57,248 bases of DNA, taken from Armatimonadota bacterium. GTDB taxonomy: Bacteria; Armatimonadota; SYMT01; JACQGL01. The position numbers were made by a program, and so were the translations under genes. Positions 4,730 through 57,123 of this stretch are shown here, one piece after another (the first letter of the stretch is position 1; the number at the start of each line of letters is the position of its first letter). Under the pieces are notes generated by a model. That model was not told the DNA's origin. It did no database searches and saw only the letters and a list, made by a program, of their open reading frames with translations. The stretch spans positions 1-57,248 of the forward strand of contig JACQGL010000185.1 in assembly GCA_016199525.1 (NCBI GenBank), read 5' to 3'.

Positions 4730-4734
4730 CGCAA

Positions 4735-4795: not shown

Positions 4796-4823
4796 ATGCT
4801 GACCGACGGCTGAACAACCATCC

Positions 4824-8999: not shown

Positions 9000-9200
9000 C
9001 GTTTCCTCCGTAAAGTGAAGGGGGTTTCGCGCCGCAGAGGTGCAGAGGGCACCGGGTGGCTGGCGATACAAGTGTTCGGGCACCAGGCGCTGAGCGTCCG
9101 GCACTGGGTGCTGGGGGTAGCTTCCTCGTGTCCCGCACCCAACGCCTAACACCCCATACCCCTCTCCCTTTCCCGCTGCGCTCTCTGCGTGCTGGCGGTT

Positions 9201-9521
9201 CTAACTGAGATCCGCCAGCGCCTCTTCGGCAAGCTGGGCGCCCGGCCGACCTGCGAGCGGCTGAAGGACGCGCGCCAGCGCCTCCGTTCTCCGCCGGCTC
9301 GTACGGGGCCAGCGCCGTAATACCTGGAGGGTGACTTCGCCCCGCGTATCCGCGAGCCGCAGCCACCGGCCGTCGAACATGATGCGCGTCAGGTCCGCGT
9401 AGCGAAGTGCGATGTGCCGTTCTCCTGCCACGGCGGATACCACCTCGGCAGCGAAGGTTGCCTTCCCACGCCGCTGCTTGCCATCCGCCCACCGCACCTG
9501 AACATCAAAGGTGACCGGCAT
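9201..9521 (-). CDS. Hypothetical protein (106 aa)
   Basis: Internal ATG (MPVTFDVQVRWADGKQ...). No recognisable motif. Coding is supported only by ORF length and position. Confidence 0.4.
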   Translation of the reverse strand: MPVTFDVQVRWADGKQRRGKATFAAEVVSAVAGERHIALRYADLTRIMFDGRWLRLADTRGEVTLQVLRRWPRTSRRRTEALARVLQPLAGRPGAQLAEEALADLS

Positions 9522-9746
9522 CGTGTCAACGACGAAAGGCCCCAAGTAAGTGTCCAGACCCGTGTGTAGGCAAGGAGATAAGGGGATGGGGACAAGCACA
9601 GGGGACGGGCGGCAAAAGACCAGGGATGATGCGGCGATCTGGTGCCATCCCCGCGTGCCGATATCTCCATGTTCCCGCGTCTCTTACGCCATCCCAGTTG
9701 TCTCCCCGTCTATCTTATTATCCTCTTTTTAAGTGCAATTGAACAA

Positions 9747-11165
9747 TTACTCCCAACGCTTCCCCAGCAACGCCCGCCAGGGCAGGTCGGGGACCAGAAT
9801 CGCTCGCGGTCGGCCCAAGGCCGACAGGATGAGCTCTGCGCTGCGGTAACCACTCCGGACAGCCCCCTCCATGGTCGCCGGCCATCCCGTCTGCACCCAG
9901 TCCCCCGCCAGGAAAAGGCCACGCACCGGGGTAGCGGGTGGGGGGCGCAGAGCGTCCACGCCCGGTCGTGCGGAGAAGGTGGCGCGCGCTTCCTTGATTA
10001 CCGCGGCATTGACGACCCGCGCCTCCCGTGCGGCGGGGAAAGCGGCTCGCACCTCCCGTTCCGCAATCTCCAGGATTTCTCCTCGGCCACGTGGCAACCA
10101 ATCTCGGGAAGCGCTCACCACGAGGCCCAGGTGGGTCCCTGCATCATCCGGCAAACCGTAATGCCGCGTCTTGTTGAACACCCAGTGTACGGGGCGATCC
10201 ACGAGCGCAGCGTGGTCCAGGTGGGTGATCGGGCGGTCGAACCAGAGGTGGACGCCGCTGATGGGAGAGGTCTCCAGGCGGCCGCAGGCCCTGAAGAACG
10301 GATGGGCGCGAAGGCTCTCGGGCAGCAGGGAGCCTAAAACGTCGGCGGGGACGGCGGCCACCACGTAGTCGGCGGGCAGAACTTCCCCATCCGCCGTACG
10401 CACCCCCCCGATGCAATCGGGGCCGTCCCCGTTAAGGGACAGGCCCACGACGCGCACCCGCAGGCGCACCGCCCCTCCCCGTGCCTCCACCTGGCGCACG
10501 CACGGGTTGTAGAGCTCGCTGAGCGGCACGGCGGGGATGCCCATCTCGTAGGCGCGCGGATGGGAAAGGAAGCCCTCGCGGAACACCTGGAACGCATAGC
10601 TGGCGGCGCAGCGTTCCGGTTCCTCGTTCAGGGCGCTCACCAGGATCGGCCGCCAGAATCGGGCGATGGCCCCGGGCGTCTGGCCATCTGCTTTTAACCA
10701 TTCCAGTGCCGTCTGATCTGCCAGGTCCTGCGGCCAGACGCGGAGCATCCGCAGCAGGCCGCGAGCGATGGCGGCCTTGTCCGCCGCGCTCAGGAACCGC
10801 AGACGCAGAAAAGAGGGGAACAGGTGCAGCGGTGCAGGGAGGGGGGCTCCCTGGAGGACGGAGAGGCGTCCCGCGCGATCCAGGAAGTAAATACGGCGGG
10901 TCCAGCGAATCCGATCCGCCACCCCCGCGCGCCGGTAGAAGTCCTGAAGGTTCGTGCAGCCGCCCATGAGGATGTGCTGGCAGTTATCCACCAACTCCTC
11001 GGACTCCTGGGCGACAAAGGAGGAGGCACGCCCGCCGGGGAAGGAGCGCCGCTCCAGGAGCGTGACGGGGAGACCCTCTTCCACCAACGCCAGGGCGGCA
11101 GCCAGCCCGGCCAGCCCCGCTCCAATCACCACCACGCGCGGCTGCGTTCCAGAAGGTATAGCCAT
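9747..11165 (-). CDS. hpnE: FAD-dependent desaturase/oxidase, hydroxysqualene dehydroxylase (HpnE)-like
   Basis: Rossmann motif VVVIGAGLAGLAAA, GGRASS, and DNCQHILMGGCTNL followed by DFYRR, as in HpnE/phytoene-desaturase-type amine oxidases. Start chosen at ATG 11165. Confidence 0.65.
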   Translation of the reverse strand: MAIPSGTQPRVVVIGAGLAGLAAALALVEEGLPVTLLERRSFPGGRASSFVAQESEELVDNCQHILMGGCTNLQDFYRRAGVADRIRWTRRIYFLDRAGRLSVLQGAPLPAPLHLFPSFLRLRFLSAADKAAIARGLLRMLRVWPQDLADQTALEWLKADGQTPGAIARFWRPILVSALNEEPERCAASYAFQVFREGFLSHPRAYEMGIPAVPLSELYNPCVRQVEARGGAVRLRVRVVGLSLNGDGPDCIGGVRTADGEVLPADYVVAAVPADVLGSLLPESLRAHPFFRACGRLETSPISGVHLWFDRPITHLDHAALVDRPVHWVFNKTRHYGLPDDAGTHLGLVVSASRDWLPRGRGEILEIAEREVRAAFPAAREARVVNAAVIKEARATFSARPGVDALRPPPATPVRGLFLAGDWVQTGWPATMEGAVRSGYRSAELILSALGRPRAILVPDLPWRALLGKRWE

Positions 11166-11401
11166 ACAAACGGATAAGGGAAACCGCCAGGATGCCAGGG
11201 ACACCAGGATTCAGAACGACGACCACGTCATCCGGTCGTAAGCGGGCGTAGAAAACCCTGCCCAGCCGATGAGCCAACCGATCCGCCTGGTTAAGACCAC
11301 CTACTGGCCACGCCACGTATTGCCGCTTATGCGGGTGAAACCCCAGTATTTGAACGATATTGCCCCCCAGCGCCAACGCCCATCCTCCCTGCGCCGGGCG
11401 G

Positions 11402-11632
11402 CTATCCGTCCTCCCCCCGTCCCCGCGCCACCACGATGAGGGCGATCGTGGACACGAGCGCCAGGCCGGCAAAGATCACGGAGCAGCGCCCCAGCACCTG
11501 GAAGCCGAGCAGAGGCAGCGCGCCAAACACCAGGATGGCGGCCAGCAACGCCGGTTCCGGCCAGCGCGGCAACGGCTGAGAGCGCCGCCGGATCAGGGAA
11601 CCACGTGGCGAGGTACGCGTGCGCCGCAGCAT
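11402..11632 (-). CDS. Small two-helix membrane protein (76 aa), hypothetical
   Basis: ATG 11632 lies 4 nt after the aminotransferase stop. Arg-rich N-terminus, then ALLAAILVFGALPLLGF and VIFAGLALVSTIALIVV. Confidence 0.35.
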   Translation of the reverse strand: MLRRTRTSPRGSLIRRRSQPLPRWPEPALLAAILVFGALPLLGFQVLGRCSVIFAGLALVSTIALIVVARGRGEDG

Positions 11633-11636
11633 AACG

Positions 11637-12890
11637 CTACCCCAGATACGCCTGCGCCACCTTCCGAATGGCCAGGGCGCGTTCATCGCACTCCTGCTCG
11701 GTAAGGCCATCAGGAAGTCCGATGGCCACCGCACGGCCGAGATAACCCAGTGTCTGCGGGCACATGTCTTTGCTGTACTGCACGTTGCCGCGATAATGCT
11801 CGCAGGTCCAGGGGCAGCCGTGTGGGGTGTAGCCCTTCTTGGCCAGGATGTGGTCCCAGTTATAGTAGATATGCCGATCAGGGATCTCAGAATCGTACAT
11901 CGTGCCGGCGCCACAGCCCTCGGCGCGCAACGCCGCCGCGAACCGGTGCGCGGTAGCCGCATCCGGCAGGAAGATGGCGAGCGAGATGCCGCAGTCGCCT
12001 GCCTCATCAGGAATGCGCTGCAGCTGAAGGCCGGGGACATCCCGGATCTGCGCCACGAGGCGCGCCTTCGCCGCCCGCTGGCGCGCCAGGATGTCATCAA
12101 GCTTGCCGATCTGGGCCCGACCCATGGCTCCTGCCAGCTCGCTCATACGATAACCGACCCCGGGGATCACCTCCCCTTCGTACCCCTCCCAGAAGGGGCG
12201 GCCGGAATCGTGGTACATCACCGCCCGCCCAAACACTTGCAGGTTGGTGGTCACCACCGCGCCACCCTCGCCCGTGGTGATGATCTTGAAGTGCTGCAGG
12301 CTGAAGCAGCCGACGTGTCCCAGGGTGCCCAGCCGGCGGCCCCGGTAGCTGCCACCACACGCCTGCGCGGTATCCTCGATCACCAGCAGGTTGTGCTGCT
12401 CCGCCAGTGCCAACAGCTCTTCCATCTGCGCGGGCGTGCCGCGCATGTGGACGGGCATAATCGCCCGCGTCCAGGGAGTGATCTTCCGCTGCACGTCCGC
12501 GGGGTCGAGGGTGAGGGTGTCATCCACCTCGGCGATCACGGGCACGGCGCGGGCGTTGATGATCGCTGCGGCGGAAGCAATGTAGGTGTAGCCAGGCACA
12601 ATTACCTCGTCGCCGGGGCCGATCCCCAAGCCAATCAGCCCGCAGGTAAGCGCCGTCGTGCCGGAACTCACCGCCAGGGCGTAGGGCACGCCCATCTTCC
12701 GCGCGAACAGCTGCTCAAAGACCCGCACCTGCGATTCGTCTTCCCGCAGATAGCGGAACAGATTCTCGCTCTCCAGAACCTGAAGAAGCGCCTCGCGCTC
12801 GGCAGCGTCGAACCGCCGGTACGGCGGGCGCGGGGTGGTGACGGCCCTGGAGCCGCCGTCGATCGCCAGTGTATCGGTGACGGAGGACAT
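11637..12890 (-). CDS. DegT/DnrJ/EryC1/StrS family PLP-dependent aminotransferase
   Basis: 417 aa with family-typical layout. Candidate PLP lysine lies in FSLQHFKIITTGEGG. Confidence 0.85.
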   Translation of the reverse strand: MSSVTDTLAIDGGSRAVTTPRPPYRRFDAAEREALLQVLESENLFRYLREDESQVRVFEQLFARKMGVPYALAVSSGTTALTCGLIGLGIGPGDEVIVPGYTYIASAAAIINARAVPVIAEVDDTLTLDPADVQRKITPWTRAIMPVHMRGTPAQMEELLALAEQHNLLVIEDTAQACGGSYRGRRLGTLGHVGCFSLQHFKIITTGEGGAVVTTNLQVFGRAVMYHDSGRPFWEGYEGEVIPGVGYRMSELAGAMGRAQIGKLDDILARQRAAKARLVAQIRDVPGLQLQRIPDEAGDCGISLAIFLPDAATAHRFAAALRAEGCGAGTMYDSEIPDRHIYYNWDHILAKKGYTPHGCPWTCEHYRGNVQYSKDMCPQTLGYLGRAVAIGLPDGLTEQECDERALAIRKVAQAYLG

Positions 12891-13142
12891 CGTTAGCTCC
12901 TATGACGTAATACGTGACACGTAGTGCGTTACGCATTGCTCCGCTGGAGCCCTGCGCGGGTTTTAACCCCTCTACCGCATTCACCGCCATCGAGGCGAAC
13001 GCGAGGGTCGGCGTGATTGCCTGCCGCATCAGGGTAGGAAGCGGCTACGGGGGAGCCGCCGCGCATCAGGCTGGCTGCCGCCCGCGCCGCCCGGCGCTGG
13101 CGGAGGTGCGTCCTGGACCGGTCTGCTGGCGCGTGCTACACT

Positions 13143-14171
13143 ATGCGCGTGGCGGCGGGAAAACGTAACGCATCGGGGCGCAGGCGGCGGAAGGTCCTAC
13201 GCGGGATTTGCGGGGGCTACCTGTTGGCACTGCTGGGCGTCTGGGCAGTATCCCGCCTTGAGGCTGAGCACTGGTGGTTCAGCAATCTGCTGCTCTATCT
13301 GCCCCAGCTCCTGTACGGCATTCCGCTGCTGGGGCTCTTGCCGATCTGTCTGCTCCGCAAGGAGGGCTACGGGCTGCTTGCGTGCCTGGCGGCCGCCGCC
13401 CTGGTGCTGGGGCCGATGATGGGCTTCCATCTGCCGCGGGTAGGCGCCGCACCCCAGGGGGCTACGCTCCGGATAATGACCTACAACATCTGGCAGGCGG
13501 CGACCGGCGTAGAGCGGACGCTTGCCGTTATCCAGAAGGAGGCGCCGGACGTGCTCGCCCTTCAGGAGACCGCCGGCGGCCCGCGGGGGGAAGAGTTTGC
13601 CGCTGCCCTCCAGAAGCTGTTCCCCGGCTACAGCTTCCTGCGCGCCAGCGAGTATCTGATCGCCAGCCGATACCGCATCCTTGCTTCCGAAATGCGTCGT
13701 CTGGACAGCCGCGGGCGGCGGCAAACGCTCTGGGCGCAGCTGGACGGCCCTACCGGGCCCTTCAACCTGTTCGTGGTGCATCTGTATACCGCCATGCACG
13801 GAGACAACGTGGTGCTGACGCCGAGTGACCTGCCGGATTACCTGGGCCGGACCGCCAGCCTGCGCCTGCGCGAGGCTTACACCCTCGTCGGTGCGCTCGC
13901 CGACTGCCAGGGGCCGGTGGTAGTGGTGGGCGATCTGAACACGCCGCCTTATGGTCTGGTTTACTCCATCCTGACCCGCGGCCTCCGGGATGCGTTCGAC
14001 GTGGGCGGGTTCGCCTGGGGGTTCACCTACCCCGCACACGTGCCTCTCCTGCGCATCGACCATATTCTGGTGAGCGCTCGCTGGCACGTGCGACGCGCCT
14101 GGGTGGGCGGCGGTAAGGGATCGGACCACCGGCCGGTGGTAGCCGATCTCGTCCTGCCGGCGGATCATTGA
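13143..14171 (+). CDS. Membrane-anchored endonuclease/exonuclease/phosphatase (EEP) family protein
   Basis: N-terminal TM helices, then LRIMTYNIW, DVLALQE and a terminal GSDHRPVVADL motif. Confidence 0.8.
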   Translation: MRVAAGKRNASGRRRRKVLRGICGGYLLALLGVWAVSRLEAEHWWFSNLLLYLPQLLYGIPLLGLLPICLLRKEGYGLLACLAAAALVLGPMMGFHLPRVGAAPQGATLRIMTYNIWQAATGVERTLAVIQKEAPDVLALQETAGGPRGEEFAAALQKLFPGYSFLRASEYLIASRYRILASEMRRLDSRGRRQTLWAQLDGPTGPFNLFVVHLYTAMHGDNVVLTPSDLPDYLGRTASLRLREAYTLVGALADCQGPVVVVGDLNTPPYGLVYSILTRGLRDAFDVGGFAWGFTYPAHVPLLRIDHILVSARWHVRRAWVGGGKGSDHRPVVADLVLPADH

Positions 14172-41095: not shown

Positions 41096-44014
41096 CTACT
41101 TGAACCGCGGCGGCTCCACACGGCGCACGAAAGGCAGCGCGATGAGCGCTTCCAGCCGTTCCACCGACAGGGTGCCCAGGAGGAGCTTGCCGGGGCGGAG
41201 GGTGGCCGCCAGCTCGAAACCAAGCGCCTGGAGCTGCTTCAGGCCGTCCGGGGGTAGCTCGTTGAGCCAGATCTGCACCCCAACGCGGCCGTTCACCACC
41301 TCCGGCAGGCCTGGCTGGCGCAGAGAGCCATTCACGCCGTGCTTGCACACTTGTTCCGCCAGGCGCTGCAGCGGGGGCGCCAGCTTGGCGCGGGCCAGCA
41401 GGGCGCGGCGCTGCTCCGGCTTCATCGCCTCCAGGCGCTTCAGCCCCTCCGGCGTGCCCGCGGCGATCTCCATCTCGCCCGAGGTGGCGGGCACGTCCAG
41501 GTCGAAGACGGCATCCGCCTGCCGGTTGGCACGGAAGCCGACGTTCAGCTGCCCGGTAATCCTGGGCAGCCGTCGCAGCTTAACTGGGGACGGCCCGGGA
41601 GGCCTCACGCCCCGCGGCGCCAGAGTGGCCGCAGGCGAGAAAGGCGCCGCCGTGGCTGCCGGCGGTGAGGCAGGGGCCCCCCCCATTCCGCCCGGCGCGC
41701 CCGCCCACCCGCCGGCATCCGTGACTATGTTGTGGCTTAATCTCATCTCCTTCGCCTCCAACAGGCGCGCCGCCTCTGCGCTCTCATCCCCGAAGATCCC
41801 CTCGTAGGAAACGCCCTCCGGCATCTCCACGGGCACGTCCACCGTGCGCTGGCGGCCGCCCACGTTGACTATCCGCTCCTCCACCGCCACGAAGGAGGTG
41901 TACTGGCTCATCAGGCGGTACTCCAGGGCCGTGGCGACGATCTGCTCCTGTACCTTCGGATCGGGCCGGCCGAGCTGCGCGCCCAGCCAGTCCTGCGACT
42001 GCAGCGCCTCGATCTTCTCCCGCGCCCAGAGAGTGGGGAGGGCGCTGTTCTCCTGCTGCACGGAGGGGAAGGAGACGTGGATCGTCTGGCTCCACGGCCG
42101 GCCGCGCAGGAGACCGTGCACGGTAATGTCTCCCTCTGCCGCCCTCGTGTAGCGTCCCTTCAGGATGAGGGGCCGGGCGCTGAACAGGTCGGGGAGGTGC
42201 TTCGGGTAGACTTCATCCACCGGTAGGCCGTGCCAATCCACTCCCACATCCAGCAACAGCGGGTGGGAGACGCGGCGATAGAACCGGGCGGCGGCTTCCT
42301 CACCCGGCGTGTTGAGGGTGACGAGCTCCGCCACCCCGCGCCCCTCCTTCGCCATCCCTTCGATCAGGAACCGGTTCACGGAGTTGCCGATGCCGAACGG
42401 GAACATCCGCGCCCGGCCGCGGTGCTTCCGGACGTAAGCGATGATCTGCATGTCGTTGCCGACATAGCCATCGGTCATGTAGCAGATCATCCGCAGGCGC
42501 TCGGGGTCATCGGGGAGGCGAAGGGCGTAGTCCACGGCCCTGAGGATGTCCGTGCCGCCCTCGCCCTCCAGCGGCTCCAGGAAGCGCATCGCCTTCGCCA
42601 CGTTTTCCGGCGTGTTGGGCACCGGCGCGGGGAAGCAGGGGTTGAGGTTCAGGTTGAAGCCGATGAGCTGGAAGGTGTCCCCCGGATTCAGGTGGCGGAT
42701 GCAGTAGCGCATCGTCTCCTTGGCCTTGCGGATCGGCCAGCCCATCTGGGAGCCGCTCTGATCAATGACGAACACCATCTCCTTGGCGGAGACCTGGCTC
42801 TGCGGCGGGGCTTGAGGCGGCTGGAGGATAAGGGTGAAGTAGCCGAACCCGTCCCCCACGGCGTGGGCCAGCACGCCCGTCTGGATCTCCGACCCCGCCA
42901 CCGCGTAGCGCAGGACGAAGTCTTTGTTGGGGAGCGTGTCCTGATTCTGCAATCGAATGATGCGCCGCGTGGGGCCGCTCGCTTCGGTGGCAATGGGATG
43001 GAGCTGCGAGCGCACGTCCTGCACAGGCAGGCCCGCGTCCAGGTTCACGGTGACAGAGATGTTGTGGCCCGTGCGTGTGGCGGGAGGGGTGATGGGCGGA
43101 GTGATCCGGTCCGCGTCGGTCACCACGGAGGTGGCGCCGGGGTCGCCTTCGATGGCCTGGGGCGGGCTGGGATCGCCGCGCTGGCCGGGCACCGTGTAGC
43201 CGCCGCCCGGCGTGAAGCGCGGCCCGACCACCATCGGGAAGGTGAACTCGTACTCGCCCTCATCGTACTTCAGCAGGTTAACATAGCTGATGACGACCGT
43301 GACCCTTTCGCCCGGCATGATGTTTGCCACCGACTGGGTGAAGATATTGGGCCGCTCCTGGTCGAGCAACGCAGCGGCCTGCCCGGCGGCTCTGGCGGCC
43401 TCGTAAATCTCCCGCGCCTCCTCCCGGCGCTTGATCTCTCCCCGGATGACACGGCTACCGATACTCATCGTCATCTCGTCTACCGCCGCATCTTCGGGCA
43501 ACGGGAAGGTGTAGACCGCCTCGACAGGCGCTTCGGTGGGGTTGTGGAACTCCTGCCTTAGCTGGACACGCGCCACGAACCCAGCGATATCCGCTATGAC
43601 GTCGGTGTGCTTAAGGGGGCACAGCCCGATCGCCTTGCCCTTATCGTCCACGATGGTGAGCTGCCCTGCCGTGGGCGCCTCTTCGGCGTAGGCGCTCCCC
43701 GAGCGCTTCTCGGACGACCACAGCGACCAGACGAGCAGCAGGCCCACTGCGGCGAATGGTACCAGCCGGTAGGATAGCCCTATCGTCCGATGCCACCGGG
43801 CGGCCCGGCTTGCGGCGGCGCGGCGCGCTACCGCGCTACCCGTCTGGCAGATCCTGGCGACGCGAACACGCAGCGCCCCCGGAGCGGTGGATAGTGGGAA
43901 GGCCGCCTGCATCAGACGGGCGAACTCGGGCGTGATGGGGTCGGCGTCCAGTGATGCGTCTTTCTGGGGGCGCCGGCGGCGAGCGCAGAGCAGGTTAGAG
44001 AGTCGGTCCCACAT
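41096..44014 (-). CDS. Single-pass membrane protein with extracytoplasmic VIT and von Willebrand A domains (candidate anti-sigma/sensor)
   Basis: ATG 44014 overlaps the sigma gene stop by 20 nt. ~80 aa cytoplasmic region, then TM LVPFAAVGLLLVWSLWS. VIT region (AVYTFPLPEDAAVDEMTM...). vWA MIDAS VIDQSGS. TSFVAVE motif. 972 aa. Confidence 0.8.
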   Translation of the reverse strand: MWDRLSNLLCARRRRPQKDASLDADPITPEFARLMQAAFPLSTAPGALRVRVARICQTGSAVARRAAASRAARWHRTIGLSYRLVPFAAVGLLLVWSLWSSEKRSGSAYAEEAPTAGQLTIVDDKGKAIGLCPLKHTDVIADIAGFVARVQLRQEFHNPTEAPVEAVYTFPLPEDAAVDEMTMSIGSRVIRGEIKRREEAREIYEAARAAGQAAALLDQERPNIFTQSVANIMPGERVTVVISYVNLLKYDEGEYEFTFPMVVGPRFTPGGGYTVPGQRGDPSPPQAIEGDPGATSVVTDADRITPPITPPATRTGHNISVTVNLDAGLPVQDVRSQLHPIATEASGPTRRIIRLQNQDTLPNKDFVLRYAVAGSEIQTGVLAHAVGDGFGYFTLILQPPQAPPQSQVSAKEMVFVIDQSGSQMGWPIRKAKETMRYCIRHLNPGDTFQLIGFNLNLNPCFPAPVPNTPENVAKAMRFLEPLEGEGGTDILRAVDYALRLPDDPERLRMICYMTDGYVGNDMQIIAYVRKHRGRARMFPFGIGNSVNRFLIEGMAKEGRGVAELVTLNTPGEEAAARFYRRVSHPLLLDVGVDWHGLPVDEVYPKHLPDLFSARPLILKGRYTRAAEGDITVHGLLRGRPWSQTIHVSFPSVQQENSALPTLWAREKIEALQSQDWLGAQLGRPDPKVQEQIVATALEYRLMSQYTSFVAVEERIVNVGGRQRTVDVPVEMPEGVSYEGIFGDESAEAARLLEAKEMRLSHNIVTDAGGWAGAPGGMGGAPASPPAATAAPFSPAATLAPRGVRPPGPSPVKLRRLPRITGQLNVGFRANRQADAVFDLDVPATSGEMEIAAGTPEGLKRLEAMKPEQRRALLARAKLAPPLQRLAEQVCKHGVNGSLRQPGLPEVVNGRVGVQIWLNELPPDGLKQLQALGFELAATLRPGKLLLGTLSVERLEALIALPFVRRVEPPRFK

Positions 44015-44651
44015 TGGCAGCCTCCGGCGCCAGACCAGGCGCATTGGGAGATGCGTCCTCGGCGGCCAGTCGTTCCAGCACCGTGCTCTTGGCGCGATGC
44101 AAGAGCGCTTTGACCGCGTTCTCGGAACGGCAGAGGAACCGCGCGATCTCTGCCAGGGAGAGCTGGTCCACGCAGCGCAGCCAGAGCGCCTCCCGCTGCG
44201 CCTCTGGCAGTTGCAGCACGAGGCGGCGGATGCACGCGATGGTCTCCTGGCGCTCCAGCTCGGCCTCCGGGCTGTCTGCCATCGCCCTTCCGGCGGCGAG
44301 TGCTGACGGACGGTCATCTGCCGCCGGCCCCCACAGATCGGCTTCCAGGACCTCGGGGCGCCGGCGGCGCCGGCGTGTGGCATCCAGCAGCTTGCGGCGC
44401 GCGATCCCGATCAGCCACGTGCTCACAGTTGCCTCCCCCCGGAAGCCATCGATGGAGGCGACTGCGGTGGCGAACACCTCGGCAGTGACATCCTCCGCTT
44501 CCTCCCGCCTGCGGCAGTGAACACAGACGTAAGCGTAGACGCGGTCCAGGGTAAGCCGCTGGAGTCGATCCCAGGCCCATTCCTCCCGATGTTTCAGGGC
44601 GCGCACCCAGTCTGCGTCTGTCACGCTGGAGGAATCTCGCAGCTCGATCAC
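43995..44651 (-). CDS. ECF-type RNA polymerase sigma-70 factor
   Basis: Region 2 (AEDVTAEVFATAVASIDGFRGEATVSTWLIGIARRKLLD) and region 4 (LSLAEIARFLCRSENAVKALLHRA). GTG start after GGAAGGAG. Confidence 0.85.
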   Translation of the reverse strand: MIELRDSSSVTDADWVRALKHREEWAWDRLQRLTLDRVYAYVCVHCRRREEAEDVTAEVFATAVASIDGFRGEATVSTWLIGIARRKLLDATRRRRRRPEVLEADLWGPAADDRPSALAAGRAMADSPEAELERQETIACIRRLVLQLPEAQREALWLRCVDQLSLAEIARFLCRSENAVKALLHRAKSTVLERLAAEDASPNAPGLAPEAANVGPTL

Positions 44652-49254: not shown

Positions 49255-50799
49255 TCACAACAGCCGCAGCCCGCGGGGGATGGCCACCCGATCCATAAGG
49301 TCGAAGACCCACTGCACGAGCAGTGCCAGCAGGGCGGCCGGAATCGCGCCGTGCAGGATGATGTTCGGATCGTTCAGGGTCAGGCCTGTGCTGATTCGTT
49401 CCCCAAAACCGCCCGCGCCGATGAACGCTGCCAGGGTCGCCGTACCGACGTTGATCACCGCGGACGTCTTGATCCCTGCCAGAATGGTTCGGGACGCCAT
49501 CGGCAGGCGGATCAGGAAAAGCTGGGCGAGTGAGGACAGCCCCAGCGCCGCAGCGGACTCCCGCAAAGGCGGCGGCATCTCCTCCAGTCCCGTATAGGTG
49601 TTGCGCACGATCGGCAGCAGGCTGTAGAGGAATAGCGCTGCCAGTGCGGGAACCGGCCCCGTGCCCATCACCGGGATGAAAAAGCAGAGCAGCGCCAGCG
49701 AGGGAATCGTCTGGATCAGACCGGTCAGGGAGAGCACCGTCTGCGCCAGCATCCGCGAGTGAGTGGCCAGAATGCCCATCGGAATGCCGACCAGGATGGC
49801 CAGCGCCAGCGACACGAGCACTAGATAGAGGTGCTGGGGGCCCTGGACGCGGATCGCCTGCCAGGTGCCGCGCGCCAGCTGGGCCAGCTCGTGACGCAGT
49901 GACTGGCGAGCGGCCTCGGGGCTCGGGGCGGCGGTGAGCGCAAGCCCGTTAGTGACGAATTCCTGCGCCACCTGGGCAAACGGCAGGCCGTCCAGCTCCG
50001 CACGGCCGTTCAACTCGATCATCGTTGCCTCATTCAGCCGGCCGGCCAGCGACTGGAGCTTCTGCCAGGTGCGGGGATAACGCTGCGGGAGTGAGTCGCG
50101 GTAGAGGAAGACGGCCTGGTAGGGCGGAAAGAAGCGCCGGTCATCTTCGAGCACCCGCAGGTGGTACTTCTTGAGCTTGGCGTCCGTGGTGTAGACATCC
50201 ATCACGTCGATGGCGCCCCGCTGGATCGCCTCGTACGCCAGCCCGTGGTCCAGGCCCTGCACGTGCGGCATCTGCAGGCGGTAGTGCGCCACCAGCCCGG
50301 GCCATCCATCTTGGCGACCGAGAAACTCGTGGCTCAGGCCCACCCTCAGTTCGGGGTGGCGTGCCAGGTCCGAGACGGTGCGCAGGTTCAGACGCTCCGC
50401 CAGGGCGGCGGGCACAGCCAGGGCGTACTTGTTCTCGAATCCCAGCGGATCGCTGATCCCGATCCCCCGCGGCGCGAGCGCGCGGCGGAGCGTCTCCAGA
50501 TCCGGGCGTCCGCTACTCTTCAGGATCGCCTCCGCGATAGTGCCGGTGTATTCCGGGTAGAGATCGATCGAGCCCTGTTCGAGCGCTCGGAAGACGATCG
50601 CCGTGGCGCCCAGCCCCTGCTCGTGCGTGACCGGCGCCTCCCCGGTGGCGCGGGCCAGAGCGACAGCGATTTCGCCCAGAATGAATGATTCCGTGAAGCG
50701 CTTAGAGCCGACCCGTAACGGCGGCTTCTCTTGTGCGTGGACCGGGCTACCGGAGACCAGGATCAGGCTGGCGAGGATCAGGTAGAACGCGCGTCTCAT
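49255..50799 (-). CDS. Betaine/choline/carnitine-type ABC transporter, fused substrate-binding domain (N-terminal) and permease (C-terminal)
   Basis: Signal peptide. OpuAC-type binding domain (GSKRFTESFILGEI...LYPEYTGTI) followed by an OpuBB/OpuCB-like permease (IQTIPSLALL...LPIVRNT...). The start overlaps the ATPase stop as ATGA. Confidence 0.85.
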   Translation of the reverse strand: MRRAFYLILASLILVSGSPVHAQEKPPLRVGSKRFTESFILGEIAVALARATGEAPVTHEQGLGATAIVFRALEQGSIDLYPEYTGTIAEAILKSSGRPDLETLRRALAPRGIGISDPLGFENKYALAVPAALAERLNLRTVSDLARHPELRVGLSHEFLGRQDGWPGLVAHYRLQMPHVQGLDHGLAYEAIQRGAIDVMDVYTTDAKLKKYHLRVLEDDRRFFPPYQAVFLYRDSLPQRYPRTWQKLQSLAGRLNEATMIELNGRAELDGLPFAQVAQEFVTNGLALTAAPSPEAARQSLRHELAQLARGTWQAIRVQGPQHLYLVLVSLALAILVGIPMGILATHSRMLAQTVLSLTGLIQTIPSLALLCFFIPVMGTGPVPALAALFLYSLLPIVRNTYTGLEEMPPPLRESAAALGLSSLAQLFLIRLPMASRTILAGIKTSAVINVGTATLAAFIGAGGFGERISTGLTLNDPNIILHGAIPAALLALLVQWVFDLMDRVAIPRGLRLL

Positions 50800-51548
50800 A
50801 ACCGCCTTTCCGCGTCCTCCACCCAGAGCCGCCGCTGGGCGCGGATGAACTCGGCCACGAACGGGTCGGCGGGCCGCTCAAGCAGGTCGCGCGCGCTGCC
50901 CCGCTGGAGGATCACGCCGTCGCGCATCAGAGCGATCTCGTCGCCCAGGTAGGCAGCTTCGCCCATATCGTGGGTGACCAGGAGCACCGTCTTCTTGAGG
51001 CGCTGGAAGATCTGCTTCAGGTCCTCCTGGAGTCGGGAGCGGATAATCGGATCGAGTGCGCCGAGCGGCTCGTCCATCAGCAGCACTTCCGGATCGAGCA
51101 TCAGGGCGCGCATCAGCCCCACGCGCTGTCGCTGCCCGCCGCTCAGTTGCACCGGGTAGCGGTTCAGCAGCTCCAGCGGCAGCTGCGTGAGTTCAGCCAG
51201 CTCTGCCAGCCGCTTCCGCAGCCGCTCCCGCTCCCATCCCAGGTGGCGCGCCATGAGGGTAACGTTTCCCGCCGCCGTCAGGTGGGGGAAGAGGCCGCCG
51301 TCCTGGATCACATAGCCCATACGCAGGCGGAGGGCGCGGCACGTCTGCGGCGTCATCGGCGTGTCACCGATCTTAATGCGTCCGGAATCCGGCGTGATCA
51401 GACCGGCTACGAGGCGTAGCAGTGTGGATTTCCCGCACCCGCTCGGGCCGATAAGGACCTGGCAGCGTTCCGGCGCCAGGTCCAGCGTGGTGTGAGCCAG
51501 GGCTATCTTCCCGTCGTAGCTCTTGCTGATGTCTTCCAGCGTGATCAC
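50796..51548 (-). CDS. ABC transporter ATP-binding protein (250 aa, no CBS tail)
   Basis: Walker A GPSGCGKST, signature LSGGQRQRV, Walker B LLMDEP. Confidence 0.9.
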   Translation of the reverse strand: MITLEDISKSYDGKIALAHTTLDLAPERCQVLIGPSGCGKSTLLRLVAGLITPDSGRIKIGDTPMTPQTCRALRLRMGYVIQDGGLFPHLTAAGNVTLMARHLGWERERLRKRLAELAELTQLPLELLNRYPVQLSGGQRQRVGLMRALMLDPEVLLMDEPLGALDPIIRSRLQEDLKQIFQRLKKTVLLVTHDMGEAAYLGDEIALMRDGVILQRGSARDLLERPADPFVAEFIRAQRRLWVEDAERRL

Positions 51549-51774
51549 GGCCGCCTCACGGGAAAGTCTACCACGTCCGCTGTCGCACCGTCGGAAAGGC
51601 GGGGCACGGATTCCGTTTGTCGCTCACCAAGCCCGCTCCTCCAGCGACCGACCCTTACGGCGGGCGCAGGTTTAGACCGAGACCGATTGGCGTAAGTAAC
51701 AAGAGAGCCTCCCACCGGCCACACCGTTGCGTCGGTGAAGGAGTCAGTTTCTTAACCCGCACGCTGAGCTTGCT

Positions 51775-53103
51775 TTGCTACCGATGACCAATCCGGATCC
51801 CTTGTCCCCCGCTCAGCTCGCCGAAGCCGTGTTTGACGCCCGCGAGCGCACCTGGGAGCTGGTCGCCGACCTCACCGACGAGCAGTTGATGGGGCCGCGA
51901 CTGGCGATCATCAATCCCCTGCTGTGGGAGATCGGCCACGTGGCGTGGTTTCAGGAGAAGTGGGTCCTGCGCCACGGCGGCGCGCTGCCGTCCATTCGTG
52001 CCGATGCGGACGCGCTTTACGATTCGATGGCGATCCCCCACGACATCCGGTGGGACCTGCCGCTGCCTTCCCGTAAGGAGACGCTAGCCTATCTGCGGGC
52101 CGTGCGCAGCGGCGTGCTGATGCGAATCGGCCGGGGTGATCTGACGAAGGAGGAAGCTTACTTCATCCTGCTGGCCGCCTTCCACGAGGATATGCACACA
52201 GAAGCGTTCACTTATACCCGGCAAACCCTGGGCTACCCGGCGCCACGCCTCTTTGTTCCCCCCGCCGACACGGCGGACGTCGCCGGGGGTGGGCCGTTGC
52301 CGGGCGACGCCGCCATCCCAGGGGGCAGATTTCTGCTGGGGGCCACACCGGACGAGCCGTTCGTATTTGATAACGAGAAGTGGGCGCATCCTGTGGAGGT
52401 GCCGCCGTTCGCCATCGCCCGCGCGGCAGTCACCCAATCTGAGTTCGCGGCGTTTGTGGCCGACAGCGGCTATCGCCGGCGGGAGCTGTGGCGCGAAGAG
52501 GGCTGGCGGTGGCGCCAGTCGGTGGGTGCGGAGCACCCGGTCTACTGGCGACGCGATTCCGCAGGGAACTGGGAGCGACGGGATTTCGATCGCTGGGTGC
52601 CGCTGGAGCCGCAGCGTCCCGTTCTCCACGTCTGCTGGTACGAGGCAGATGCCTACTGCCGCTGGTCGGGCCGGCGACTGCCCACAGAGGCGGAGTGGGA
52701 AATGGCGGCCGCCGCCGATCCCACCCCGGACGGCCGCGGCATCACCGCGCGCCAGCGTCGCTTCCCCTGGGGCGATGCGCCTCCCACTCCCGAGCGCGCC
52801 AACCTGGACTGGCAGGCTATGGGGTGCCTGGACGTGGGCGCCCTGCCCGCGGGCGATAGCGCCTTCGGCTGTCGCCAGATGATCGGCAACGTCTGGGAGT
52901 GGACGAGCAGCGAGTTCGGTCCCTACCCGGGATTTGTGGCAGATCCGTACAAGGAGTACTCCGAGCCGTGGTTCAAAACGCACCAGGTGCTGCGCGGCGG
53001 CGGCTGGATGACGCGCTCCCGCCTGCTCCGCAATACCTGGCGTAACTTCTACCGGCCGGATCGACGAGACGTCTGGGCAGGTTTCCGCACCTGCGCCCTG
53101 TAG
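51775..53103 (+). CDS. senA: EgtB-fold C-S/C-Se bond-forming sulfoxide/selenoxide synthase; by context selenoneine synthase SenA-like
   Basis: DinB_2-like N-domain (PLLWEIGHVAWFQEKW, FHEDMHTEAF) plus an FGE-sulfatase domain (GNVWEWTSSEFGPYPGF...VLRGGGW...AGFRTC). Followed 1 nt later by the SenB-like gene. Start is TTG 51775 or ATG 51784. Confidence 0.7.
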   Translation: MLPMTNPDPLSPAQLAEAVFDARERTWELVADLTDEQLMGPRLAIINPLLWEIGHVAWFQEKWVLRHGGALPSIRADADALYDSMAIPHDIRWDLPLPSRKETLAYLRAVRSGVLMRIGRGDLTKEEAYFILLAAFHEDMHTEAFTYTRQTLGYPAPRLFVPPADTADVAGGGPLPGDAAIPGGRFLLGATPDEPFVFDNEKWAHPVEVPPFAIARAAVTQSEFAAFVADSGYRRRELWREEGWRWRQSVGAEHPVYWRRDSAGNWERRDFDRWVPLEPQRPVLHVCWYEADAYCRWSGRRLPTEAEWEMAAAADPTPDGRGITARQRRFPWGDAPPTPERANLDWQAMGCLDVGALPAGDSAFGCRQMIGNVWEWTSSEFGPYPGFVADPYKEYSEPWFKTHQVLRGGGWMTRSRLLRNTWRNFYRPDRRDVWAGFRTCAL

Positions 53104-53104: not shown

Positions 53105-54136
53105 ATGAAGATCCGTATCATCACCCCCGCGCCACCCCGCTCCCGGAAGGGCAACCGGGTGACTGCTCTCCGGTGGGCCCGCATCCTGCGGGCGCTGGGC
53201 CATCACGTGGAGATCGAGCAGCAGTACCAGGGTGGGTGGTGCGACCTGCTGGTGGCCCTCCACGCCCGCCGCAGCTTTGCCTCCATCCGCCATTTCCGGT
53301 GCGAGCACCCGCAGTTACCCCTGATCGTCGCCCTGACGGGAACAGACGTCTACCAGGATCTACGCACCAGTCCGCTGGCCCGGCAGTCGCTGGAGATGGC
53401 GACACGGCTGATCGTGCTGCAGCCGCTGGCAATTGCCGAGATTCCGGAGCGCGTGCGCCCGAAGGCCCGCGTCATCTATCAATCCGCAGAGCCGATACGA
53501 CGGCGGGCAGCGCCGGCGAAGAGTACGTTTGATGTGTGCGTTCTGGGCCACCTTCGCCCTGTGAAGGATCCGTTCCGCACCGCGCTGGCGGCCCGGCTGC
53601 TGCCCGCCTCTTCGCGCCTCCAGGTGCTTCAGGTGGGGGCGGCGCTCAGCCAGGAGATGGCGGAACGCGCCCGTACGGAGGCGGCGTGCAATCCGCGCTA
53701 CCGCTGGCTGGGGGAGCTACCCCGCTGGCGGGCGCGGCACACGCTGGCGCGCAGCCGGCTTCTCGTTCTCACATCCAAGCTGGAGGGCGGCGCAAACGTG
53801 GTCTCCGAGGCCCTGGCCGCCGCCGTACCGGTCCTTTCCTCGCGCATCCCCGGCTCGGTGGGAATCCTTGGGGAGGAGTACCCGGGATACTTCCCGTTCG
53901 GAGAAGCGCGTCTGCTGGCGGCACTGCTGCACCGCGCGGAGACAGACACAGGCTTCTACGAGGAGCTCCGCGCCTGGTGCCAGCGGCTGGCGCCGCTCAT
54001 TGATCCCGCCCGCGAGCGGCAATCCTGGGAAAGCCTGCTGCGGGAACTCTCCCCACGAGAGGCCAGGCCGGGGCAGCCGCAGTTGCGCGGCGCCGGGCCG
54101 TCCTGTCCTTTGCCTGGTTTTCCGACGTCACCCTAA
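53105..54136 (+). CDS. senB: GT-B glycosyltransferase, selenosugar synthase SenB-like
   Basis: MKIRIITPAPPRSRKGNRVTALRWARILRALGHHV N-terminus, a GT1/GT4-like C-terminal half (EGGANVVSEALAAAVPVL), and a position between the EgtB-like and EgtD genes. Confidence 0.6.
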   Translation: MKIRIITPAPPRSRKGNRVTALRWARILRALGHHVEIEQQYQGGWCDLLVALHARRSFASIRHFRCEHPQLPLIVALTGTDVYQDLRTSPLARQSLEMATRLIVLQPLAIAEIPERVRPKARVIYQSAEPIRRRAAPAKSTFDVCVLGHLRPVKDPFRTALAARLLPASSRLQVLQVGAALSQEMAERARTEAACNPRYRWLGELPRWRARHTLARSRLLVLTSKLEGGANVVSEALAAAVPVLSSRIPGSVGILGEEYPGYFPFGEARLLAALLHRAETDTGFYEELRAWCQRLAPLIDPARERQSWESLLRELSPREARPGQPQLRGAGPSCPLPGFPTSP

Positions 54137-54142: not shown

Positions 54143-55138
54143 ATGCCAACCGCCAGAACGCTCAAGCGCCCCGAGCTGATCGCCGATAACCCCGACGAAC
54201 ACCTGGCCGCGTTCGCCCGCGATGTGGCCGCGGGGCTGACCGCGCATCCCAAGTGCCTTTCGTGCTGCTACTTCTACGACCATCAGGGGTCGCTGCTCTT
54301 TGAAGAAATCTGCCAACTAGAGGAGTACTACCTCACCCGCGCGGAGCGGGAGATCCTGCTGGCACGCGCCGCCGAGATCGCCGCGCTCTTCCCCGGGGAG
54401 ATCGCCCTCGTGGAACTGGGCAGCGGGAGCGCCACGAAGACGCGCATCCTCATCGAGGCGTTCCTGCGCCAACGTGGCGCGTTGCGCTACGTGCCGGTGG
54501 ACATCTCCCGCACAATGTTGGAGGAAAGCACCCTGGCGTTGCGGGACGAGTACCCGGAACTGGAGATCGTGGCCGTAGCGGCGGAATATACTCAGGGACT
54601 TCGCCATCTGGCGGCGGAGTCCGCTCGCCCGAAGCTGGTCCTCTGGCTGGGATCAAACATCGGTAACTTCGATCGGCCAGAAGCGGCCCGCTTTCTGCGC
54701 CAGGTACGGGAAACCATGGCGCCCTGTGATCGGCTGCTGGTCGGCGTTGATCTGCGCAAAGAGGCCGTCGTTCTGGAGCGTGCCTATGATGATGCGCGCG
54801 GCGTTACGGCCCAGTTCAATCTGAACCTGCTTGCCCGCATCAACCGCGAGATGGGCGGGCACTTCGATCTTGCCATGTTCCGGCACCGGGCTCTCTACGA
54901 CGAGGAGATGGGTCGCGTGGAGATGTATCTGGATAGCCTCGTCGACCAGCAGGTACGCATCGACCGCCTTGGCCTGGAGGTGTCGTTCGCCGCCGGCGAA
55001 CCAATCCATACCGAGAACTCCTATAAGTACTCCGGTGAGGAAATCCAGGCCCTGGCCCGGAGCGCCGGGGTGCGGATCGAGCGCCAGTGGTTCGATGGCG
55101 CGCGCCGCTTCAGCGTGAATCTGCTGGCGCCGGAGTGA
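54143..55138 (+). CDS. egtD: L-histidine N-alpha-methyltransferase (hercynine synthase)
   Basis: Alignable by eye over its full length to mycobacterial EgtD: YFYD..GS.LFE.I..L.EYY.TR.E, LVELGSGSATKTR, LGSNIGNF, AYDDARGVTAQFNLN, ENSYKY. Confidence 0.9.
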   Translation: MPTARTLKRPELIADNPDEHLAAFARDVAAGLTAHPKCLSCCYFYDHQGSLLFEEICQLEEYYLTRAEREILLARAAEIAALFPGEIALVELGSGSATKTRILIEAFLRQRGALRYVPVDISRTMLEESTLALRDEYPELEIVAVAAEYTQGLRHLAAESARPKLVLWLGSNIGNFDRPEAARFLRQVRETMAPCDRLLVGVDLRKEAVVLERAYDDARGVTAQFNLNLLARINREMGGHFDLAMFRHRALYDEEMGRVEMYLDSLVDQQVRIDRLGLEVSFAAGEPIHTENSYKYSGEEIQALARSAGVRIERQWFDGARRFSVNLLAPE

Positions 55139-55209: not shown

Positions 55210-56250
55210 TCATCCGCCCGTGTTAAGCGCCACCACATCCGGTCGGAGCACGCACTCGAGCGGCTGGCCCGCGAAGAAACGCTGGAAGTCCGCCACCAGG
55301 AGCTCAGCCATCCGGTTGCGCGCATCCTGGTTGCGGCCGGCGATATGGGGGTAATGAACCACGTTGGCACGGCCGCGCAGGAGGTCGTCCGCGGGCAGGG
55401 GCTCGACGTCGAATACGTCCGCGCCCAGGTAGATCTCATTCGCGAGGACCCGCTGCCGCACCGCCGCCATATCGACGGGAAACGCGCGCGTGATCAGCAC
55501 CAGGATGCTGCCGCGCGGCAGCAGCTGCACACGCCGCGCGTCGAGCAGGCCCTTGCTGCTTGGATTGGGTGGCACGCAGACTGCCACCAGCTGGGAGGAG
55601 GAAAGGAGCTCGTCCAGCGCCATCTGCTCTACGCTGGCGGCGGCGAACACCTCGTCGGGGACGAAGGGGTCGTAGGCGAAGGTGCGCGTGGGGAAGGCGG
55701 AAAGCAGGCGCGCCAGGGCTCGTCCGATGGCGCCGAGCCCCACCAGCCCCACCCGTTTGCCCGCCAGTTCCCCGTTCACGAACGCCGGGTTGTCGCTGAA
55801 CTGACCCCCTGGCCAGCGCCCTCCGTCCGCTCCCGTGGCCAGAAGGGTGTGCCACCACGCGCTTTGCCGGAGGCAGGCAAGCATCAGACTCAGGCCCGTT
55901 TCCGCCACGCTCTGCGCCCAGCCCCGCGTGGTATCCACCAGAGGTACGCCGCGCGCCTGAAGAGACCTATAATCCACCCGGTAGGCGCGGTTATCGAAGA
56001 TGCCCCCCACCAGCCGGAGCCGGGGCGCGGCGGCAACGCAATCCGCAGTGAGCCGCCCCGCATAAAGGGCGATCGCGTCCACGTCTGCCAGCGGCAGAAT
56101 CTGTGACAGCACGGCGTTCTCCTGGCCGGTTAGGTCCAGCAGCCGGATGTCACCCAGCGGCGCCAGTCCAGTGCGCAGGCGGGGCAGGAATGTTTCGCCC
56201 CACTCGGAGGCGGTGCCTGTGCTGCAGGAGATCAGGATGTTGGTTTCCAT
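55210..56250 (-). CDS. D-isomer-specific 2-hydroxyacid dehydrogenase family protein
   Basis: NAD motif GKRVGLVGLGAIGRALARLL. A catalytic-type R...E...H arrangement (ITRAF, ...HIAG). Confidence 0.85.
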   Translation of the reverse strand: METNILISCSTGTASEWGETFLPRLRTGLAPLGDIRLLDLTGQENAVLSQILPLADVDAIALYAGRLTADCVAAAPRLRLVGGIFDNRAYRVDYRSLQARGVPLVDTTRGWAQSVAETGLSLMLACLRQSAWWHTLLATGADGGRWPGGQFSDNPAFVNGELAGKRVGLVGLGAIGRALARLLSAFPTRTFAYDPFVPDEVFAAASVEQMALDELLSSSQLVAVCVPPNPSSKGLLDARRVQLLPRGSILVLITRAFPVDMAAVRQRVLANEIYLGADVFDVEPLPADDLLRGRANVVHYPHIAGRNQDARNRMAELLVADFQRFFAGQPLECVLRPDVVALNTGG

Positions 56251-56580
56251 TCTGGTAAGCCCTCAGGTTTGCAGGGCTAGTTTCCACGCTGCCGCCGTGC
56301 CGTCCTTCCGGACGGGCCACCCGGGTACGCGCCTGCGAGCGCCGCGCCGGAGCCGACGTGGTAATCCCTCATCAGGCGGAACCAGATGGCCCCAGCGGCG
56401 TCTGAGTAGTGACGGACATCGCGCGGCTTCGGATCGCCGGATCCGCCGGGCGGTCTGCCCGCAGGCTCGGCGTGCGCGGGAGGGTTCGTGTCTGCGGCCA
56501 CGCGGCCGGTAAGGGATACCTGCACGGGCGACTTCAGGGGGCGGTATCCATTGAGGTTCAACGAACGGAGGAAGCGGCAC

Positions 56581-57123
56581 ATGCGTAGTGCACTGCGGTG
56601 GGTGATGGCCGCCGCGTTCATCATTCTCCTCGGGTCGCCGGCCCGCGCGCAGGTCACCCAGCCCGAACTGGAAAAGAAACTGCTCCCGGTGGGCGATCCC
56701 GCGCCGGACTTCGATCTGCCCCAGGTCGGCGGCGATCGGGTGCGGCTGTCCGAGTTGACCCGGAAGAACGTGGTGCTGGTGACCTTCTGGTTCTATGGGT
56801 GTGAGGCCTGCCGGACCGAGTTTCCGCACCTGCAGAAGATGTACGATGAGCTCAAGGCCAGGGGTTTGGAAGTGGTGGCCATCAACGCCATCGACAGCCG
56901 CGAGCGGATCGAATCCTACCAGCAGGAAGGCAAATTCACGTTCCGACTGCTCCAGGCGCCGCGCGCCGATGGCCAGCCGGTGTCCGAGGTGGTGAAGAAA
57001 TACCGCGTCTCTGCCTACCCCACAAACTACCTCATTGGCAAGGATGGGAAGGTGCTGGCGCGCTTCGTGGGCTTCAACGAGAAAGCCGTTCGGGACGCCA
57101 TCGAGCGGGCGGGGGTCAAGTAG
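56581..57123 (+). CDS. TlpA/ResA-like periplasmic thiol-disulfide oxidoreductase
   Basis: Internal ATG. Signal peptide MRSALRWVMAAAFIILLGSPARA. Thioredoxin-fold FWFYGCEACRTEFP with CxxC. Confidence 0.85.
   Translation: MRSALRWVMAAAFIILLGSPARAQVTQPELEKKLLPVGDPAPDFDLPQVGGDRVRLSELTRKNVVLVTFWFYGCEACRTEFPHLQKMYDELKARGLEVVAINAIDSRERIESYQQEGKFTFRLLQAPRADGQPVSEVVKKYRVSAYPTNYLIGKDGKVLARFVGFNEKAVRDAIERAGVK

Follow-up and report, generated by a model that had tools for sequence, protein, structure and literature searches.

A binding-domain-first betaine-type ABC transporter beside a selenoneine cluster: a candidate importer of histidine betaines

What does a betaine-type ABC (ATP-binding cassette) transporter carry when its genes lie head-to-head with a selenoneine biosynthesis operon? 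The question is raised by contig JACQGL010000185.1 of the Armatimonadota bacterium assembly GCA_016199525.1, analysed here as one stretch of 57,248 nucleotides (hereafter the window). The sequence comes from a groundwater metagenome, and three groundwater DNA runs contain it or are related to it. A first-pass annotation of the window had proposed that the transporter serves hercynine, ergothioneine or selenoneine rather than acting as a generic osmoprotectant system. From its pocket residues and its conserved gene linkage, we moderately favour the reading that the transporter imports histidine betaines, most likely hercynine, and that the sulfur and selenium forms are tolerated.

The transporter is encoded by a two-gene operon with the following features.

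50796..51548, minus strand: ABC ATPase subunit, 250 aa, GTG start, first gene of the two-gene operon, no CBS or other regulatory tail
49255..50799, minus strand: fused binding-domain/permease subunit, 514 aa, PF04069 and PF00528
50734..50799, minus strand: predicted signal peptide, residues 1-22 (MRR, a hydrophobic core, then VHA/Q)
49951..50721, minus strand: OpuAC-type (cluster F-III) solute-binding domain, residues 27-283
49258..49842, minus strand: permease domain, residues 320-514, five predicted transmembrane helices and an EAA-type coupling loop

The operon has the components of a type I ABC importer of the betaine/choline kind (OpuC/ProU, solute-binding protein cluster F-III): an OpuAC fold, a BPD_transp_1 domain with an EAA loop, and a complete set of ATPase motifs. 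The ATPase matches PF00005 in a Pfam profile search (E 6e-33), and its translation contains Walker A (GPSGCGKST), signature (LSGGQRQRV) and Walker B (LLMDEP) motifs. Its match to the proV subfamily model TIGR01186 (223 bits) is limited to positions 1-242 of a 363-position profile, the nucleotide-binding part, so the protein does lack a CBS tail, as had been described. An ATGA overlap, legible in the sequence, couples the ATPase stop to the start of the fused gene, whose product contains OpuAC at residues 27-283 (E 2e-58) followed by BPD_transp_1 at residues 338-504 (E 8e-23). Both open reading frames (ORFs) have a GC3 of 0.84-0.85, the same as adjacent genes.

An AlphaFold2 model of the fused subunit (mean predicted local distance difference test, pLDDT, of 84) supports this organization. 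Hydropathy peaks at residues 4-22; the model has pLDDT values under 50 at residues 17-22 and adopts the fold of the binding domain from residue 28. The signal peptide would be cleaved. A linker, partly helical by prediction, leads to the permease, where hydropathy and the model together place transmembrane helices at approximately 324-346, 354-376, 380-400, 445-466 and 480-503. The coupling loop ESAAALG occupies residues 414-420, and E414, A416 and G420 are invariant. The predicted topology has the binding domain outside the cell, feeding an N-out, C-in core of five helices. Export of the pathway product is ruled out, because binding-protein-dependent type I ABC systems import.

The pair is divergent from a plus-strand senA-senB-egtD operon, and its coordinates agree with the head-to-head arrangement reported earlier, in which the gene called EgtB-like is senA.

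51549..51774, no strand: divergent intergenic region between transporter and senA, 226 bp counted from the TTG start of senA, 235 bp counted from the ATG at 51784
51775..53103, plus strand: senA, selenoneine synthase, EgtB-like (NF041186, 526 bits, cut-off 420)
53105..54136, plus strand: senB, selenosugar synthase (TIGR04348, 407 bits, cut-off 300)
54143..55138, plus strand: egtD, histidine N-alpha-methyltransferase, which makes hercynine (TIGR03438, 376 bits, cut-off 291)

All three products exceed their NCBIfam equivalog cut-offs, which identifies a selenoneine cluster. The senA ORF (442 aa) as listed opens with TTG at 51775, and an in-frame ATG lies three codons on at 51784 (MTNPDP...), which may be the true start. 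Within the 226-bp divergent region we found no Rfam or riboswitch match, sigma-70-like promoter, terminator or inverted repeat. No senC of the AIRS/SelD type was present among the ORFs flanking the cluster or among 10 other window ORFs tested; SelD may be encoded elsewhere in the same genome.

Comparison with solved structures placed the binding domain close to the ergothioneine transporter EgtU, in agreement with the family placement first suggested. SpEgtUC, from Streptococcus pneumoniae, was the best sequence match in the PDB (phmmer; E 2e-46, 36% identity over 267 aa, 162 bits), followed by BilEB and Helicobacter pylori HpEgtU (138 bits), AfProX (122 bits) and OpuCC/OpuBC (approximately 105 bits), with YehZ far lower. 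A Foldseek search with the AlphaFold2 model gave the highest template modelling (TM) scores to open forms, namely apo HpEgtU (0.90-0.91), Lmo1422 (0.89) and AfProX (0.88). The model itself represents the open state, which confirms the fold and does not discriminate between ligands. We therefore compared individual pocket residues, using printed alignments to SpEgtUC and AfProX together with published ligand contacts; H. pylori positions were taken from statements in the papers.

Carboxylate clamp: SpEgtUC K242, T296, R379; AfProX K13, T66, R149; window K33, T87, R162
Cage: SpEgtUC Y341, Y419, Y443, N339; AfProX Y111, Y190, Y214, D109; window Y125, Y203, Y227, N123
Imidazole contacts: SpEgtUC E375, T275; AfProX E145, T45; window E158, T66
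Specificity marker: SpEgtUC G244; AfProX F15; window F35
Specificity marker: SpEgtUC F293; AfProX Y63; window Y84
Specificity marker: SpEgtUC Y337; AfProX F107; window F121
Near thione sulfur: SpEgtUC I243; AfProX P14; window R34
Near thione sulfur: SpEgtUC P401 (H. pylori I451); AfProX P172; window H185, preceded by D184

The window protein has what is needed to hold an onium head group next to a carboxylate: a box of four tyrosines (Y84, Y125, Y203 and Y227) with N123, and the clamp K33/T87/R162. It shares a cluster F-III fold and a two-gene layout with the EgtU/EgtUV systems (S. pneumoniae SPD_1642-1643, H. pylori EgtUV and Listeria monocytogenes BilE), including a separate ATPase and a fused binding domain and permease, and it keeps the equivalents of nine SpEgtUC residues (K242, T275, T296, N339, Y341, E375, R379, Y419 and Y443). 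The ligand class proposed here, histidine betaines, is also that of EgtU. The anticipated alignment to EgtU and AfProX thus bears out the conserved cage and clamp, but the residues that give EgtU its specificity are absent. The glycine that is invariant in EgtU at position 244, beside the water network around the thioimidazole, is replaced by F35, a phenylalanine that is itself invariant in the window's family. The 'Y-to-F switch' of EgtU (Phe 293, Tyr 337) is in the AfProX state (Y84, F121), and the alkyl CH...S donors I243/T274 (P296/G327 in H. pylori) are replaced by R34 and A65, as is P401 by H185. The domain order is also reversed, as had been pointed out: EgtU consists of a six-helix permease followed by a binding domain, whereas the window protein runs from signal peptide to binding domain (27-283) to a permease of five helices (320-514). 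Judged from these residues, the window protein is not an EgtU, because the published specificity determinants of EgtU are absent. We note that failing these determinants does not exclude a thio-histidine betaine as ligand, since subclusters of sequence similarity network cluster 2 outside the SpEgtU-like one lose them and HpEgtU nevertheless imports ergothioneine.

The pocket is also not simply that of AfProX, the glycine and proline betaine binder of Archaeoglobus fulgidus. The two share the four-tyrosine box, phenylalanine at positions 15 and 107, and the equivalents of K13, T66, R149 and E145. However, AfProX is an unfused binding protein, and the remaining lining differs, with P14, E171, P172 and D109 of AfProX corresponding to R34, D184, H185 and N123 in the window. 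R34 and H185, the residues nearest to where a thione sulfur would lie, are found in neither SpEgtUC nor AfProX at these positions.

Homologues with the binding domain first are very numerous (hundreds of members), and all are publicly annotated as osmoprotectant or glycine-betaine permeases. We scored pocket conservation in 160 full-length homologues with 47-77% identity. Cage and clamp residues were conserved in all 160, and the invariant pocket residues were K33, F35, Y84, T87, F121, E158, R162, D164, H185, Y203, T205, D206 and Y227. Position 65 varied among N, G and A, position 123 between N and D, and position 184 among D, E and Q, and position 59 varied as well; the most variable pocket position, 34, was R in 119, K in 27, S in 4 and A in 3 homologues, with R or K in 146 of the 160. 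A pocket this nearly frozen speaks for a single class of ligand throughout the family. The proteins form a distinct and previously uncharacterised binding-domain-first subfamily, with a reversed domain order and a distinct pocket, that has been repeatedly recruited to histidine-betaine pathways.

To see which genes accompany the subfamily, we gathered approximately 170 loci (80 from genomes, 80 from metagenomes and 10 for the closest database relatives) and clustered all neighbouring ORFs. The metagenome loci carry no taxonomy and many are short; ORF calls in foreign loci are approximate, some being merged or mis-called, and key calls were checked by tblastn and profiles. Ergothioneine or selenoneine genes (egtD, EgtB, SenA/SenB or MES-like) were present in 23 of the loci, window included, spanning at least seven phyla and several gene orders. 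Named genomes among them belong to Poribacteria, Planctomycetota (Scalindua), Myxococcota, Acidobacteriota, Armatimonadota and Verrucomicrobiota. After the ATPase, egtD was the top specific neighbour: it occurred in 20 loci by clustering and in 9 of 21 transporter clades, at a median gap of 0.8 kb, and it was often co-operonic, preceding the ATPase gene in some loci and following the fused gene in others. All egtD genes tested exceeded the equivalog cut-off. Of the 67 loci flanked by 5 kb or more on each side, 12 were linked to such genes.

The linkage was concentrated in loci whose transporter does not have asparagine at position 65, the subset to which the window belongs (17 of 62, versus 3 of 98 Asn-65 loci, which are mostly from Burkholderiales; Fisher p = 8e-6). 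Within this subset, the only families found in four or more loci within 5 kb were the ATPase (42), EgtD (15), EgtB/SenA (6) and an MES-like fusion (4). We considered position 65 (Gly/Ala versus Asn) as a specificity switch and rejected it, as the split is not absolute and is confounded with taxonomy. PntA, SDR proteins, ECF sigma factors and an ABC exporter were likewise rejected as functional partners, being confined to narrow clades or belonging to generic families.

The enzymes that act on hercynine differed among these loci. EgtB-model matches passed in L001, L037, L057, L100, L121 and L167 (locus numbers are ours), and SenA-model matches in the window, L066, L094 and L124, with L104 just under the SenA cut-off and with SenB and SelD beside it. 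SenB was present in L094, L104 and L124, and SelD lay inside the clusters of L094 and L104. In four further loci (L030:13172-16538, L122:603-4091, L123:12505-15900 and L157:3814-7200), one of them from a Candidatus Scalindua metagenome-assembled genome (MAG), egtD and the transporter directly adjoin a fusion protein of approximately 1130 aa that joins a molybdopterin oxidoreductase domain to a class-V aminotransferase/cysteine desulfurase, the architecture of MES.

Adjacency to such genes, which the first-pass annotation had made a test of its proposal, is therefore conserved in relatives. The closest two with visible context both keep it in differing gene orders: in L001 (73% identical transporter) the transporter lies within an EgtB operon, and in L167 (64%) it is divergent from egtB-egtD. 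Locus L124 has a second senA-senB-egtD cluster like that of the window (66%, 64% and 57% identity, respectively), co-directional and downstream of the transporter. A different kind of link was found in L076, a Vulcanimicrobiota MAG (JAEXNA010000146.1), where positions 9204-13968 encode the ATPase, the fused transporter, a thiourocanate hydratase (NF058530, 947.8 bits versus a cut-off of 930) and a thiohydantoin desulfurase whose gene runs off the end of the contig. From these annotations, the locus looks like an ergothioneine catabolic operon, comprising two degradation steps, with its own importer of the binding-domain-first family.

Locus L094 carries less weight as evidence for hercynine import. 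Its order is senA, then senB-senC-ATPase-transporter, with no egtD within 10 kb. In L094 and its relatives L088 and L093 alike, the transporter is closely preceded by SelD (L088:6155-7207, L093:5708-6778 and L094:7685-8737), but L088 and L093 have neither senA nor senB, which suggests that sen genes were inserted beside a pre-existing SelD-transporter neighbourhood in L094.

These results support the proposed histidine-betaine link, though not a selenoneine-specific one, as the partner that stays constant is egtD. The enzymes that come with it vary (EgtB, SenA/SenB, MES-like) and the pocket residues are independent of whether the partner adds sulfur or selenium, which together point to the shared hercynine core. 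Hercynine is favoured because it is the only metabolite common to all of the pathways that accompany the transporter family. By alignment to the EgtU contacts, R/K34 and H185 occupy positions where the C2 substituent of the imidazole would lie.

We propose the following model, in which we infer the stoichiometry, the substrate and the direction of salvage. Two fused subunits and two ATPase subunits would assemble into one importer, with the binding domain of each fused subunit lying outside the cytoplasm and joined to the N-terminal end of a permease with five transmembrane helices. The binding domain would close on a ligand having an alpha-carboxylate next to an onium nitrogen, with K33, T87 and R162 clamping the carboxylate and Y84, Y125, Y203, Y227 and N123 boxing the nitrogen. 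The side chain of the ligand would then enter a sub-pocket lined by R34, F35, A65, T66, E158, D184 and H185. Hercynine (trimethylhistidine) is the most likely ligand, and the pocket probably also accepts its 2-thio (ergothioneine) and 2-seleno (selenoneine) derivatives. Physiologically, the system may scavenge external hercynine or ergothioneine, or may recapture leaked or oxidised product, feeding SenA or topping up the pool. Hercynine is an oxidation product of ergothioneine, so a salvage role is plausible.

Several observations weigh against this model. Zhang et al. reported that the positions of G244, F293 and Y337 separate ergothioneine binders from glycine-betaine binders, and the window pocket is AfProX-like at all three (F35, Y84 and F121); the substitution G244F in SpEgtUC drops ergothioneine affinity approximately 100-fold. 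Around 85% of loci have no histidine-related neighbour at all. In Oxalobacteraceae, the last gene of a classical hut operon encodes a family member with this same pocket, a context that points to histidine rather than a betaine. Seen from the sen side, none of five independently sampled sen clusters (those of the five closest SenB homologues with long contigs, 68-71% identity) had an OpuAC transporter within 8 kb, two of the five being cut on one side; the transporter is thus an optional accessory rather than a core part of sen clusters. A search of sequencing runs turned up only groundwater DNA runs and no RNA runs. Finally, an importer co-transcribed with an enzyme usually brings in that enzyme's substrate, which for EgtD is histidine.

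This last point, with the hut operons, makes L-histidine the strongest competing substrate, although we consider it unlikely. The transporter would then be a fused analogue of HutXWV that feeds EgtD in the window and the Hut pathway in Oxalobacteraceae, with betaines secondary at most. Histidine is the one compound that both EgtD and Hut use as substrate, and egtD is the constant partner whatever enzyme acts on hercynine. In four Oxalobacteraceae loci (L022, L063, L073 and L081, from Janthinobacterium and Massilia; approximately positions 800-11450), the order on one strand is amidohydrolase, hutU, hutH, hutG, hutF, hutD, hutI and then the fused gene, which is the only transporter gene seen in the hut string. 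The hut genes are genuine, the urocanase scoring 925 bits with the hutU model versus 654 with the thiourocanate model and HutH being of the MIO type (680 bits). The Hut system of S. meliloti reportedly transports histidine plus betaines. HutXWV, a ProU/OpuAC-type ABC system, has been published as participating in histidine uptake in Pseudomonas, and like the Oxalobacteraceae family members it is a betaine-type importer inside hut operons. The likeness drawn here is one of gene context. HutXWV comprises three separate proteins, and the window copy lies beside sen/egt genes and has no hut genes near it.

The pocket and the distribution of the hut link argue against histidine. The four-tyrosine box is complete in all 160 members, and ligands named in the titles of PDB entries for this structural subcluster are glycine betaine, proline betaine, carnitine, arsenobetaine and ergothioneine. 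As far as we know, the natural ligands seen in solved structures of this subcluster are all onium compounds. The hut link is limited to one family inside the Asn-65 clade, at loci where the fused gene has no adjacent ATPase; either the ATPase is supplied from elsewhere or the fused gene is orphaned. SpEgtUC has been published as binding histidine only very weakly. Furthermore, the window's own clade includes the L076 ergothioneine catabolic operon, where histidine import makes no sense.

Less probable still is a generic osmoprotectant importer of glycine or proline betaine, similar to AfProX, whose adjacency to sen/egt genes would reflect stress co-regulation or chance. The pocket equals that of AfProX at F15, Y63 and F107 and in all cage and clamp residues, public annotations name all relatives accordingly, and the many loci without a histidine-related neighbour and the closest sen clusters without a transporter would fit. 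However, the egtD adjacency in 17 of 62 non-Asn-65 loci, in at least seven phyla, in several gene orders and often in one operon, is far above the rough expectation for a single-copy gene within 5 kb, which we estimate at well below 1%. No glycine-betaine or choline metabolic genes, catabolic or synthetic, recurred among the clustered neighbours. The invariant H185 and R/K34 (146 of 160) replace both AfProX prolines, at the EgtU positions that touch the imidazole C2 substituent. No connection between AfProX and genes of histidine-betaine pathways is known to us. The CBS module, absent from the window ATPase, serves ionic-strength or c-di-AMP control in OpuA/OpuC-type osmoregulated systems, and the OpuA ATPase carries CBS domains. 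Fused betaine transporters of the OpuF/OpuA type resemble the window protein in having a betaine-type binding domain and permease in one chain, but their binding domain is C-terminal. The proposal that this is not a generic osmoprotectant system is favoured by the neighbouring genes and tempered by the AfProX-like pocket, and L-histidine is a live alternative substrate.

Returning to histidine betaines, a more specific version, to which we give only tentative credence, is that the subfamily is a dedicated hercynine salvage importer of ergothioneine and selenoneine producers in many phyla. The thiol or selenol would be spent outside the cytoplasm and decay to hercynine, which the transporter would recover and EgtB, MES or SenA would re-charge.

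Other genes were observed around these loci. A FAD-dependent pyridine-nucleotide-disulfide oxidoreductase of approximately 460 aa (best NCBIfam match of the PRK06370 type), related to mycothione and glutathione reductases, recurs by the transporter and egt/sen genes (L088:12738-14123, L093:9874-11526, L094:14265-15656, L100:7233-8510, L109 at approximately 5420-6772 by tblastn, and L124:7821-9200). It could be a reductase of oxidised ergothioneine or selenoneine; there is no such gene near the window transporter. A protein of approximately 245 aa directly follows the transporter in three egt-linked or related loci, including L001:5237-5983, where it is a Peptidase_M15 (VanX-like) protein, and L109:11523-12257. 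Going by the names under which other close SenB homologues are publicly listed, and by signature neighbour genes in one of the five loci, the SenB relatives sampled are probably from Planctomycetota. Near the senA-senB pair in the locus of SenB homologue P0167 is a SulP-family sulfate permease (gene 4131-5852), a possible route for selenium oxyanion uptake. In the window itself, two genes lie beside egtD at 55210-57123, one on the minus strand for a homologue of D-2-hydroxyacid dehydrogenase and one on the plus strand for a secreted thioredoxin-like protein of the AhpC/TSA type; neither gene recurs beside the transporter elsewhere, and the dehydrogenase gave no tblastn hits. At 41096-44651, unrelated to the transporter, an ECF-sigma-like ORF (43995-44651) is immediately followed downstream by the gene for a 1095-aa protein with VIT and von Willebrand A domains.

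The ergothioneine transporters so far known from bacteria (EgtU/EgtUV) were discovered in non-producing species and reject hercynine. EgtU occurs in Firmicutes unable to make ergothioneine, whereas the window's family occurs in producers and in environmental Gram-negative phyla. The literature that could be searched, which did not include the key selenoneine paper, gave no account of this subfamily or of a transporter tied to sen/egt biosynthetic clusters, and nothing relevant on hercynine transporters or on links between HutX and betaines. It also contained nothing on producers exchanging, recapturing or sharing hercynine, ergothioneine or selenoneine, and it described no bacterial selenoneine-linked transporter.

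The subfamily occurs in phyla of soil, groundwater and marine habitats. Its companions are three mutually unrelated classes of enzyme through which hercynine gains sulfur or selenium, as well as one route of ergothioneine catabolism. If its ligand is histidine or glycine betaine, the transporter would simply import a nutrient or an osmoprotectant, as many others do, and only its domain order would be unusual. With a histidine betaine as ligand, the subfamily would represent a second, independent structural solution for recognising these compounds, a genomic marker for the environmental trafficking of these antioxidants, and a tool to feed hercynine to production strains. Should the hercynine-salvage reading be true, it would be the first hercynine transporter and the first bacterial transporter tied to selenoneine, and would be evidence of an extracytoplasmic redox cycle of ergothioneine or selenoneine.

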